Below are positions 8,155 through 9,403 of a DNA stretch of 31,734 bases, in pieces. The position numbers and the translations under genes were made by a program. Below the pieces are notes generated by a model, which made no database searches, had not been told where the DNA came from, and was given only the letters and a program-made list of their open reading frames with translations. Source of the DNA: Candidatus Nanoarchaeia archaeon. Its GTDB lineage: Archaea > Nanobdellota > Nanobdellia > Woesearchaeales > GW2011-AR9. Location of the stretch: assembly GCA_035289745.1 (NCBI GenBank), contig DATDWF010000024.1, positions 1 to 31,734 on the forward strand, read 5' to 3'. Positions within the stretch are counted from its first letter, which is position 1; every line of letters begins with the position of its first letter.

Positions 8155-8442
8155 CTAGCAGCCTCCCACCATCGCTGGCGCACTTCTGGTGCTCGCAGCC
8201 GCTGCGGGCGAAGAGCCACTGCTTCTCGCTGCTACCGCTGCTCCCGTTCCACCAACAACTTGGTCTTCCAGCCCATTTATCTGGAAGGTCTGCACTCCTG
8301 AAAAAATCAACAGCCCGACTACTAAAGCCAGGAGCAAATAGTTTACCTTCTGGTGCTTCACGGTTTGGCTGCCATGCTTCAGTTCTTCATTGAAGCTGCT
8401 GTGCTTCGATTCTTCTCTTGATATACAACATTCTTCCTTCAT
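8155..8442 (-). CDS. Membrane-anchored protein with C-terminal MVGGC (copy 3), N-terminal EECC
   Basis: ATG 8442 follows GGAGGT. It has a TM segment ending VQTFQI, then TGAAV, an Ala/Ser linker and APAMVGGC*. Confidence 0.8.
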   Translation of the reverse strand: MKEECCISREESKHSSFNEELKHGSQTVKHQKVNYLLLALVVGLLIFSGVQTFQINGLEDQVVGGTGAAVAARSSGSSPAAAASTRSAPAMVGGC

Positions 8443-8444
8443 AG

Positions 8445-8705
8445 TTAACAACCTCCTACCATTCCGATACCTGCTGTTGAACTACTACTTTTACTGGCTC
8501 TTGCAGGAATTATTCCATGCATTTCGTAGTTCATTTTCTCATCTTCCGTCCAGCTGGATAGGCCTAGCGGCCCTGCTTCAGCTAATCCGACGCTGCCGGT
8601 TGCCAGCCCGGTTATGTTTTTATTGATTGTAGCAAGCTGAAAGGCCTGCACGACTACGAGTATCAGCACGGCGCTGACGAGGATTGCTGGTGCCCCAATT
8701 TTCAT
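8445..8705 (-). CDS. Membrane-anchored protein with C-terminal MVGGC (copy 2)
   Basis: ATG 8705 follows GGGGGTG. It has a TM segment ending VQAFQL, then ITGLA, NYEMHG, a Ser linker and GIGMVGGC*. Confidence 0.8.
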   Translation of the reverse strand: MKIGAPAILVSAVLILVVVQAFQLATINKNITGLATGSVGLAEAGPLGLSSWTEDEKMNYEMHGIIPARASKSSSSTAGIGMVGGC

Positions 8706-8707
8706 TT

Positions 8708-9403
8708 TTAACACCCCCCAACCATGCCGCCAGCTTTTCCTGCGCCTTGCTCAATCCCCCGGTACTTGTTGCTGGCCAGGTTGATGAAATTGAGTTCGAT
8801 ACCATTGCTGGCAAGGATCTGGGCTTTCAGTTCTATCTGCCCCGGGAAGAAGAGCGCTTTCCACTTGCCGGCCTCTTCCTGAATCTGCTCATCGGTAAAT
8901 TCACTAGCATGCTTGGTAAGCAGATACTTCGCCAGACCGCGCATCGCATAGCTGTGCGCACAGCCGCAGGCCGGCTGGCCGTCGGCAAAGATGACTGCTT
9001 TCGCTCCGCAGCAATATTCGCAGGAAATGCCTTTGTTTATCATATACAAAGCATTGATATAACGCTGCTTTTGCGCTTCATTGAGAATAATAGTCTGGTC
9101 TAACATCCCCAGTTTTCTGATCGTGGCATCTGCCTTTTCCGGATCAGCAGCAGAGACATCATCGAAGCTAATGCCTAATTCTTTGCCATAAATGGCGGGG
9201 ATTCCTTTCGGCAGAATATTCGAAGTGCTTCCCGAGTTGCCAGAAACGGCCGCTCCGGTGAGGCTACCGATATTCCCTTCTCCGCCAATCTGCAGCTTGC
9301 TTAACGCCGAGAGCCGGAGCGCATTGAAGCCCACGATAAATACCATGGCCACCAGCAGCCCCAGCAGCAGCTTATTCATTGTTTCCTTGTTGGACAAATC
9401 CAT
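8708..9403 (-). CDS. Membrane-anchored Cys-rich protein with C-terminal MVGGC (copy 1)
   Basis: GAAGGTGA RBS. It has a TM segment ending FNALRL, then LTGAAV, SCEYCCG and ACGCAHSYAMRG, and ends AGGMVGGC*. Confidence 0.85.
   Translation of the reverse strand: MDLSNKETMNKLLLGLLVAMVFIVGFNALRLSALSKLQIGGEGNIGSLTGAAVSGNSGSTSNILPKGIPAIYGKELGISFDDVSAADPEKADATIRKLGMLDQTIILNEAQKQRYINALYMINKGISCEYCCGAKAVIFADGQPACGCAHSYAMRGLAKYLLTKHASEFTDEQIQEEAGKWKALFFPGQIELKAQILASNGIELNFINLASNKYRGIEQGAGKAGGMVGGC

Follow-up and report, generated by a model that had tools for sequence, protein, structure and literature searches.

What links three adjacent genes whose products differ greatly in length and yet finish with the same five residues, and what might such an ending be for? 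The question is raised by a 31,734-nucleotide stretch of DNA (the window) from Candidatus Nanoarchaeia archaeon, which is contig 24 (DATDWF010000024.1) of a 1.02-Mb assembly (GCA_035289745.1) of 116 contigs with 48% GC, representing a 91%-complete genome. It holds the co-directional genes for three proteins that we call A, B and C. In both the list of open reading frames (ORFs) and the sequence itself, the C-terminus of each is M-V-G-G-C followed directly by a stop codon (Table 1), as the original prediction, made from the sequence alone, had reported down to the individual codons. Only 2 nt separate A from B and B from C, and 1 nt separates the stop codon of C from the next gene, a CopG/DUF411 homologue for which a GTG at 8153 is the likely start. 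Because of these gaps of 1-2 nt, the genes for A, B, C and the DUF411 protein almost certainly form a single translationally coupled operon. The sequencing runs that contain the stretch are DNA only and derive from groundwater and soil metagenomes. We find that the trio is part of an envelope cassette that is conserved among DPANN archaea and has relatives in ultra-small bacteria, and we put at about one in two the probability that its tethered terminal cysteines are arms that shuttle Cu(I) outside the cell.

Just three of the 19,612 stop-to-stop frames of at least 30 residues in the whole assembly end in G-G-C, and these are A, B and C. A word-indexed search returned 2,196 homologues of A, none with a protein name and with existing labels of Woesearchaeota or Nanoarchaeota. 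The tag is conserved in hundreds of homologues: all of the 120 best homologues of A end in G-G-C, 115 of them in M-V-G-G-C. Eighty A loci were fetched, in which 171 of 11,057 ORFs end in G-G-C (167 as M-V-G-G-C and 4 as Q-V-G-G-C). Nearly all of these lie in a same-strand run with A, and the few found some kb away belong to another copy of the cassette or stand alone (L023, L065). In 71 of the 80 loci there are two to four tailed genes, the tailed mini-proteins, one to three in number, being almost always downstream of A. Among 174 tailed genes the codons in use include all four for Val, all four for Gly at both positions, both TGT and TGC, and all three stops. Cys is the final residue in every one, Val is constant (174/174) and Met nearly so (170/174); the constancy of G-G-C was the selection criterion for this set, whereas that of Met and Val was not. 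Residues that stay fixed while synonymous codons vary freely argue that the tail is under strong selection at the protein level and is not the product of recent DNA duplication, a conclusion first drawn from the three codon sets of the window and now extended to the whole set.

A scan of one genome per species placed A in 319 genomes. Among 80 listed records of A-carrying genomes, DPANN taxa account for nearly all labels (Woese-, Pace-, Nano-, Aenigm-, Micr- and Iainarchaeota), and we suspect mislabelling of the few bins recorded as Methanosarcinales, Gammaproteobacteria or Thaumarchaeota. When 1.84 billion cluster representatives were searched exhaustively with a profile, only 305 clusters were found. 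The more distant homologues end in MVGAC, MVGSC, MVGDC, WVGEC, WVGDC, QVGSC or FVGSC, giving a general form [M/W/Q/F]-[V/A/S]-G-x-C-COOH in which the most constant positions are the last and the third from last, Cys and Gly respectively. At the DNA level, a pattern for MVGGC plus stop was positive in 12 of 41 close relatives (0 matches for the reversed-pattern control) and in 88 of 401 high-quality genomes of the phylum, with ~190 matches against 1 for the control; the matches are typically grouped, two to four within a few hundred bases. The cassette is therefore patchy, occurring in about one genome in five of the phylum, yet widespread. Of 14 single-match loci that were fetched, two have no tailed ORF: L090 is a chance in-frame match directly after a stop, and in L088 the pattern is present with no tailed ORF of at least 30 residues. 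No description of the tail exists in Pfam, NCBIfam or the PDB, and full-text literature searches for MVGGC returned unrelated papers only, in agreement with the earlier statement that the tag is undescribed.

Protein A is composed, in order, of an N-terminal transmembrane (TM) anchor ending FNALRL, a Ser/Gly linker, a helical domain of ~165 residues (the A-domain), a short linker and the tail. The invariant columns of the A-domain are P-x-G-x-P-x-x-Y-G, C128-E-Y-C-C-G-A, C146-G-C-A-H150, A-M-R-G and L-F-F-P. In an AlphaFold2 model built from a 31-sequence alignment (mean predicted local distance difference test score (pLDDT) 88.4, predicted template modelling score 0.73) the domain is all-helical and its cysteines occupy a short strand/turn region running into a helix. 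Mean pLDDT is 79 over the ten residues that precede the terminal Cys, compared with 45-51 in the first linker, which suggests that the tail of A packs on its domain. A, B and C matched no family in Pfam (E up to 0.1) or NCBIfam; a PDB profile search with the A alignment (best E 0.82) and a Foldseek search of the model against the PDB (best E 3.7) found no relative of A. Among look-alikes of A proposed by a protein language model, the sole named family is PCYCGC (PF13798; 42 clusters, score 0.47), at lead level only, and rhodanese-carrying clusters appear as a weak lead (0.46). Across 239 homologues the residue before the terminal Cys is other than Gly in 11 of 25 proteins with a CC-nonGly motif and in 6 of 214 with CC-Gly. 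This covariation of the penultimate tail residue with the A-domain CC-x is suggestive, a hint only, since shared ancestry could explain it.

A second arrangement, which we call the type II cassette, was found in genomes with a single or isolated match to the tag (for example L094:2427-5790; also L084, L091, L092, L095 and L097-L099). A regulator of the same type as in the window is followed by a tail-less A-domain protein of 250-425 residues with extra N-terminal TM helices (C-P-V-C), then by a tailed mini-protein ending (N/D)-L-P-(S/G)-M-V-G-G-C, and last by a protein anchored in the membrane that combines two thioredoxin-fold domains with C-x-x-C motifs. In 8 of 8 cases the gene that follows a tail-less A-domain gene encodes such a tailed mini-protein, and other A-domain variants themselves end ...L-E-N-L-P-G-M-V-G-G-C. 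The tail is found either on the A-domain or on the product of the next gene, so that the two are a functional pair, fused or split, linked in cis or in trans. This pairing is the strongest clue to the reader of the tail, and the extended form L-P-x-M-V-G-G-C looks like a docking peptide. The A-domain as the tail's constant partner, along with a dedicated membrane regulator and a membrane protein with an H-C-P-L-C motif (both described below), goes beyond what the original prediction contained.

The two small proteins of the window are built around the same ending. B has a TM anchor ending VQAFQL, a linker, a Trp/Met/His motif, a further linker and the tail; C begins with a cytoplasmic extension carrying a Cys-Cys pair and a Lys/His-rich stretch; its TM anchor, which ends VQTFQI, comes next and is joined to the tail by a long linker of Ala, Ser and Pro. 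The low-complexity linkers and the adjacent DUF411 gene are as previously stated. Types of small tailed proteins were counted among 97 sequences. Type B1, to which B belongs (26/97), carries W-T-x-x-E-x-M-x-Y-(E/D)-(M/H)-H-G-x-x-P-x-R between its linkers, and in an alignment of the 26 sequences W52, T53, E56, M58, Y60, H63, G64, P67 and M82-C86 are invariant. Type B2 (11/97) has G-E-T-Y-E-Q-M-M-A-R-M-H-P-D-Q in its place. The type that includes C has the cytoplasmic N-terminal extension, with Cys-Cys and a His/Lys-rich segment, the Cys-Cys pair being present in 19/97; this suggests a cytoplasmic metal site on the same polypeptide as the tail. Plain forms have a TM helix, a linker and the tail and nothing else. 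The window also encodes a Met/His-rich protein that has a SHOCT tail and is secreted or anchored; its Y-M-E-Q-M-H-P stretch resembles the B2 motif, and it recurs in 10 of the 38 complete cassette loci defined below.

Counts of lysine plus arginine around the TM helix show an excess before it in 23 sequences of A and after it in 0; for the small tailed proteins the figures are 59 and 16. By the positive-inside rule, A and the small proteins are predicted to be oriented N-in/C-out, with their tails extracytoplasmic. The polar motif at the end of the helix, (N/Q)-x-(F/L)-(Q/R)-(L/I), is as specific to the trio as was proposed, since only three of the 498 ORFs of the genome with an N-terminal TM stretch have it, and these are A, B and C. 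The TGxA motif, which the original prediction also counted as part of the shared architecture, proved not to be specific: TGxA[VI] after the N-terminal TM helix occurs in 5 of the 498, at ~8x the background rate, and three of the five are unrelated to the trio. It looks like a generic feature of this organism's anchored or secreted proteins, and T-G-x-A-(V/I) may mark where secreted proteins of DPANN archaea in general are processed or sorted.

The genes around A were surveyed by clustering all ORFs within 7 kb of it in 81 loci, of which 38, with at least 4 kb on both sides of A, are counted as complete (Table 1). By our own estimate, a single-copy gene would fall by chance within a 14-kb span of a 1-Mb genome in ~1-3% of cases. 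CopG/DUF411 is the only recognised family of the core cassette; no curated model was found for A, B, C, the HCPLC protein or the proteins ending Cys-Cys-x-x-Trp. HMA, cupredoxin, DUF2933, DUF302, ArsR and thioredoxin-like genes recur more rarely beside A. With CopG/DUF411 in 25 and CopA in 15 of the complete loci, the proposed tie between the tag and copper loci holds. It extends to a distant homologue of A with the tail MVGSC, which lies on an unrelated contig in a CsoR-CopA-CcdA-like-cupredoxin cluster, so that the copper link recurs independently. CsoR is typically bacterial, and the host of this homologue is therefore probably an ultra-small bacterium.

Table 1 Features of the window and frequency of cassette members among complete loci.
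Feature	Position	Strand	Motif or evidence	Complete loci (of 38)
Protein A, 231 aa	8708..9403	(-)	ORF list and sequence	38
Tag codons of A	8708..8725	(-)	ATG GTT GGG GGG TGT TAA	
Protein B, 86 aa, type B1	8445..8705	(-)	ORF list and sequence	
Tag codons of B	8445..8462	(-)	ATG GTA GGA GGT TGT TAA	
Protein C, 95 aa	8155..8442	(-)	ORF list and sequence	
Tag codons of C	8155..8172	(-)	ATG GTG GGA GGC TGC TAG	
Small tailed protein				at least 33
CopG/DUF411 homologue	7665..8153	(-)	PF04214, E 3.6e-24, 84.7 bits against a cut-off of 27	25
DUF2933 small membrane protein, optional member	7367..7609	(-)	His-His, CC, Met-Met-x-x-Met-His	5
HCPLC protein, 175 aa, polytopic membrane protein, core member	6711..7238	(-)	signal peptide, then near-invariant A-H-C-P-L-C-T	30 (53 of 81 loci)
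146-aa membrane protein; family ending C-C-x-N-W, alternative to the C-C-K-E-W protein	6269..6709	(-)	C-A-L-C; second conserved C-terminal tag C-C-R-N-W	11
Cytosolic 167-aa helical protein			ends C-C-K-E-W	20
Cassette regulator, membrane winged-helix	12562..13068	(-)	winged helix DUF7343/MarR, PF24034, E 5.5e-12	35 (68 of 81 loci)
CopA	13055..15280	(-)	HMA, CPC in TM6, YN(x4)P, M(xx)SS, DKTGT	15 (within 7 kb)
DsbA/Trx-like cluster				7
HMA-DsbD_2 (CcdA-like)-cupredoxin fusion, 460 aa	3626..5008	(-)	island context, not a core member	
S-adenosylmethionine (SAM)-dependent methyltransferase	10231..10857	(-)		
SAM-dependent methyltransferase	11885..12565	(-)		
SAM-dependent methyltransferase	15283..15924	(-)		
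Met/His-rich protein with SHOCT tail	11161..11733	(-)	Y-M-E-Q-M-H-P	10
VKOR	18661..19089			
1,345-aa ORF	19632..23669	(-)	no Pfam match at E up to 0.001	

The DUF411 protein of the window matches the solved structure of CopG (PDB 6WIS) with E 7.6e-24 over 113 residues. A lipobox-like signal (LLVAGC) is present, and the alignment to 6WIS places its CxCC motif as SCGCC and its M-x-S-C-H-T motif as M-E-S-C-H-T, both kept in 45 cassette copies. CopG itself is a thioredoxin-fold protein that binds a Cu4 cluster bridged by Cys; it takes part in copper resistance under anaerobic conditions and has been proposed to oxidise Cu(I) (PMC7558416). As DUF411 is missing from about one third of complete cassettes, it is not an obligatory acceptor. 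The protein of the adjoining DUF2933 gene ends in A-C-H, another terminal Cys motif within the island. The HCPLC protein matched no Pfam family (E up to 0.1), and its language-model leads, MerT (0.57, below significance) and rhodanese-carrying clusters (0.68), are weak. If it is cleaved after the Ala, the mature N-terminus would be a His beside a CxxC, a possible copper site at the membrane surface. In other genomes the place of the C-C-R-N-W protein is taken by the unrelated cytosolic C-C-K-E-W family (e.g. L023:12133-12636), which has look-alikes in bacteria of the Candidate Phyla Radiation (CPR) as well; neither family is in Pfam.

The regulator is a one-component protein in which two TM helices surround an outside loop with conserved L-C ... 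C-P-x-H-x-S, and a winged helix on the cytoplasmic side comes after them. In DPANN genomes both cassette types begin with it, and in most genomes it lies directly upstream of A; in the window, 3.2 kb of metal-island genes are inserted between them (two methyltransferases, two SHOCT proteins, a DUF302 protein and a YgaP-like TM protein). The CopA of the window has every motif expected of a P1B-1-type Cu(I) ATPase and is predicted to be one, with CPC, YN(x4)P and M(xx)SS as the motifs that we take to confer Cu(I) selectivity. The island further holds a VKOR gene, DUF302 and three SAM-dependent methyltransferases. The methyltransferase genes, one of them weakly TehB/TPMT-like, are interspersed with the metal genes and could serve the methylation of metalloids or thiols. 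The 460-aa fusion has an unusual architecture in which copper binding is joined to trans-membrane thiol reduction. Beside the VKOR gene and a PadR regulator is the 1,345-aa ORF.

How might such a cassette work? We build our preferred answer, that the terminal cysteines are tethered arms for Cu(I), on tail conservation, outward topology, the obligate pairing with the A-domain and copper context, and from these infer metal binding, the direction of transfer and the acceptors. The membrane-bound winged-helix regulator would control the cassette genes. Their products would be anchored through a single N-terminal helix on the outside of the membrane, with a flexible linker ending in the invariant terminal Cys. 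The thiolate of this Cys, together with the Met thioether four residues upstream, would bind Cu(I) at the tip of a mobile, swinging arm. Cu(I) set free at the membrane surface by CopA, and perhaps by the HCPLC membrane protein, would be taken up there by the arms and delivered to thiolate-rich acceptors: in the A-domain the CxxCC/CxCxH site and, in cassettes that have it, the CxCC cluster of CopG/DUF411. The mini-proteins may supply more soft-metal sites: a CusF-like Trp/Met/His set in B1, Met/His in B2 and the cytoplasmic Cys-Cys in C.

Several lines of evidence point this way. The tail is invariant across deep divergence and its Cys is always the last residue, while synonymous codons are free; the proteins face outward on low-complexity linkers; and CopG/DUF411, CopA, HMA, cupredoxin and DUF2933 recur as neighbours. 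The B1 residues (W, M, Y, M/H, H) and the B2 motif (M-M-A-R-M-H-P) are classical extracytoplasmic Cu(I) ligands. The cis or trans link of A-domain and tail, and the pLDDT of 79 before the terminal Cys, with its suggestion of a tail packed on the A-domain, are also consistent with an arm that docks. Hand-over of soft metals by flexible terminal Cys motifs is established, as in the C-terminal Cys pair of MerA and the C-terminal HCH of Ctr1.

Other observations weigh against the arms being Cu(I) carriers. Many cassettes are without CopA and DUF411. The near-absolute invariance of Val-Gly-Gly and the form (N/D)-L-P-x-M-V-G-G-C look more like recognition by a protein pocket than like a metal ligand, and known metal-binding tails tolerate variation. 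One Cys and one Met are a weak Cu(I) site unless several arms or the acceptor contribute. The A-domain cysteines are in a knuckle-plus-helix-start arrangement (judged from the secondary structure of the model only), and their site could be purely structural zinc. The type II cassette pairs the tail with a double thioredoxin-fold protein and not with CopG, which favours redox chemistry. The heteromer of the trio put forward in the original prediction gained no support, a predicted complex of A, C and B scoring 0.05 against a mark of 0.32 with the TM helices merely side by side; by the predictor's own calibration such a low score is no evidence against binding. A more elaborate scheme, which we regard as doubtful, is an envelope relay of a new kind. 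Several membrane-anchored carriers, each with one terminal cysteine, would dock through (L-P-x)-M-V-G-G-C into the A-domain as an ATP-independent thiolate relay that, with the HCPLC and inner Cys-Cys-x-x-Trp proteins, moves Cu(I), or a sulfur adduct that traps Cu(I), across and away from the one membrane that DPANN archaea and ultra-small bacteria have.

Comparison with known copper and mercury systems gives likenesses of logic and ligand. CopG/DUF411 is an envelope CxCC copper protein linked to CopA, and the CxxCC and CxCxH of the A-domain resemble it in ligand type. However, CopG has no terminal Cys arm, A, B and C share no sequence similarity with DUF411, and A has no fold match in the PDB; with no profile match, membership of the trio in the CopG/DUF411 family was rejected. 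The Mer relay (MerP, MerT and the Cys pair of MerA) and the His-Cys-His of Ctr1 likewise depend on soft-metal ligand exchange, flexible termini and Cys pairs of membrane proteins, for which the cassette offers outward Cys arms, the HCPLC membrane protein and inner proteins ending Cys-Cys-x-x-Trp. They differ in that no homology was detected beyond the weak lead from the HCPLC protein to MerT, in that there is no reductase, and in the copper rather than mercury context. The HCPLC protein was not assigned to MerT (PF02411): it has no Pfam match to it and only one conserved Cys pair, after the signal peptide. B1 and B2 use outside the cytoplasm the same Met/His/Trp ligand set as CusF, CopC and PcoC, but in short linear motifs of disordered, tethered mini-proteins, with no beta-barrel and no family match. 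PCYCGC lipoproteins (PF13798) are also extracytoplasmic and Cys-rich, with a motif of the C-x-x-C-(G/C)-C type, and are called uncharacterised in a lipoproteome paper (PMC13068155). A has C-E-Y-C-C-G in place of P-C-Y-C-G-C, and the PF13798 profile matched neither A nor, with E allowed up to 10, anything else in the genome; the relation is an unproven lead.

The main alternative is to read the tail as the working end of a redox shuttle in a thiol-disulfide relay. The terminal Cys of each arm would enter into short-lived mixed disulfides and pass reducing or oxidising equivalents between membrane or thioredoxin-fold proteins on one side and the A-domain Cys cluster on the other, and copper would be no more than the stress that makes repair needed. 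We hold this to be possible, though on balance unlikely. In the type II cassette the tailed mini-protein sits between a tail-less A-domain protein and the double thioredoxin-fold CxxC protein; a CcdA-like gene adjoins the distant A homologue with the MVGSC tail; the island of the window has the HMA-DsbD_2-cupredoxin and VKOR genes; CopG has a thioredoxin fold; and an invariant Gly-Gly before the Cys would suit an arm that enters a partner's active site. Yet CcdA/DsbD_2, VKOR and thioredoxin-like proteins are not core members of the cassette seen in the window (type I), DsbA/Trx-like proteins being present in only 7 of the 38 loci. Moreover, a lone Cys cannot cycle by itself, electron transfer offers no ready reason for three to four parallel arms per cassette, and the Met/His/Trp motifs of B1 and B2, like the HMA, CopA and cupredoxin neighbours, indicate metal. 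A covalent carrier arm of the SoxY kind appears improbable. Here the terminal Cys would carry a persulfide, polysulfide or other small adduct to an A-domain enzyme, possibly so that copper is precipitated or complexed as sulfide at the cell surface. In SoxY the intermediates ride on a Cys within a C-terminal Gly-Gly-Cys-Gly-Gly swinging arm (PMC5336275). Both systems are extracytoplasmic, share the G-G-C core and place the functional Cys on an invariant, flexible, Gly-rich C-terminal arm, so that the logic of an arm visiting its partners is likely shared; the docking-peptide look of L-P-x-M-V-G-G-C and, as weak leads, the rhodanese-carrying clusters to which A and the HCPLC protein show language-model likeness also fit. 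The cassette arms are, in contrast, tethered to the membrane, come as 2-4 paralogous carriers per operon and have copper genes, not Sox enzymes, beside them. Membership of A, B and C in SoxY (PF13501) was rejected: there is no SoxY domain in any of the three (Pfam, E up to 0.1), the model of A is all-helical and not Ig-like, Cys is the last residue with no Gly-Gly after it, SoxZ (PF08770) was not found in the 91%-complete genome, and no sulfur-oxidation genes are among the conserved neighbours. By analogy, then, the tail would resemble a swinging arm such as that of SoxY or a metal hand-off tail such as those of MerA and Ctr1, while being a member of neither class.

That the tail is a processing or anchoring signal, with the terminal Cys S-lipidated as a second anchor or the tail cleaved or conjugated after Gly-Gly in the ubiquitin-like, CysO-type manner, is very improbable in our view. 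V-G-G-C fits the residue classes of a relaxed lipobox ([LVI]-[ASTVI]-[GAS]-C), and the neighbouring DUF411 protein has a normal N-terminal one; lipoboxes, however, work directly after a signal peptide, and the tag is at the extreme C-terminus, 40-200 residues past the TM helix. The C-terminal sorting signals PGF-CTERM, PEP-CTERM and LPXTG were rejected, as the tag forms the last five residues after a polar linker and the hydrophobic helix and basic tail of known signals of this kind are absent. Gly-Gly followed by one residue resembles the precursors of ubiquitin-like proteins, and a sulfur-carrier mimic of the CysO-Cys type had been raised in the original prediction as a minor idea. This fails, along with membership in ThiS, MoaD or CysO: A is helical, B and C are TM helices with disordered linkers, there is no beta-grasp fold, the tails point out of the cell, away from any ATP, and the conserved neighbours include no E1-like, JAMM, sortase or archaeosortase-like gene. 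Such a signal would also leave the copper context without a reason. Hardly credible, finally, is the idea that the small proteins are precursors of ribosomal peptide metallophores, in which Cys would be modified to a heterocycle that binds copper, as happens in methanobactins or bufferins. In its favour are the short length of the products, their hydrophobic N-terminal segment and the copper genes around them, and bufferin-type precursors likewise carry export signals. But MbnB/MNIO (PF05114) is absent from the genome and from the conserved neighbours, which include no modifying enzyme, the same tail is found on the folded 231-aa protein, and the N-terminal segments, with their conserved polar motif, resemble permanent anchors rather than cleaved leaders.

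To our knowledge, DPANN archaea and CPR bacteria, with tiny genomes and one membrane, are without the periplasmic copper machinery of model bacteria, and the cassette bears on how they handle Cu(I) released at their own surface. It occurs in roughly a fifth of the phylum genomes sampled, has its own membrane sensor-regulator and is made up of almost wholly unannotated families. Taken together, it appears to be a system for envelope copper or thiol handling by cysteine arms, built from undescribed families. If the arms are copper or thiol shuttles, they would add a new carrier-arm motif beside that of SoxY and a new metal-site domain with no structural relative, and would provide a testable model for envelope metal handling in organisms not yet grown alone.

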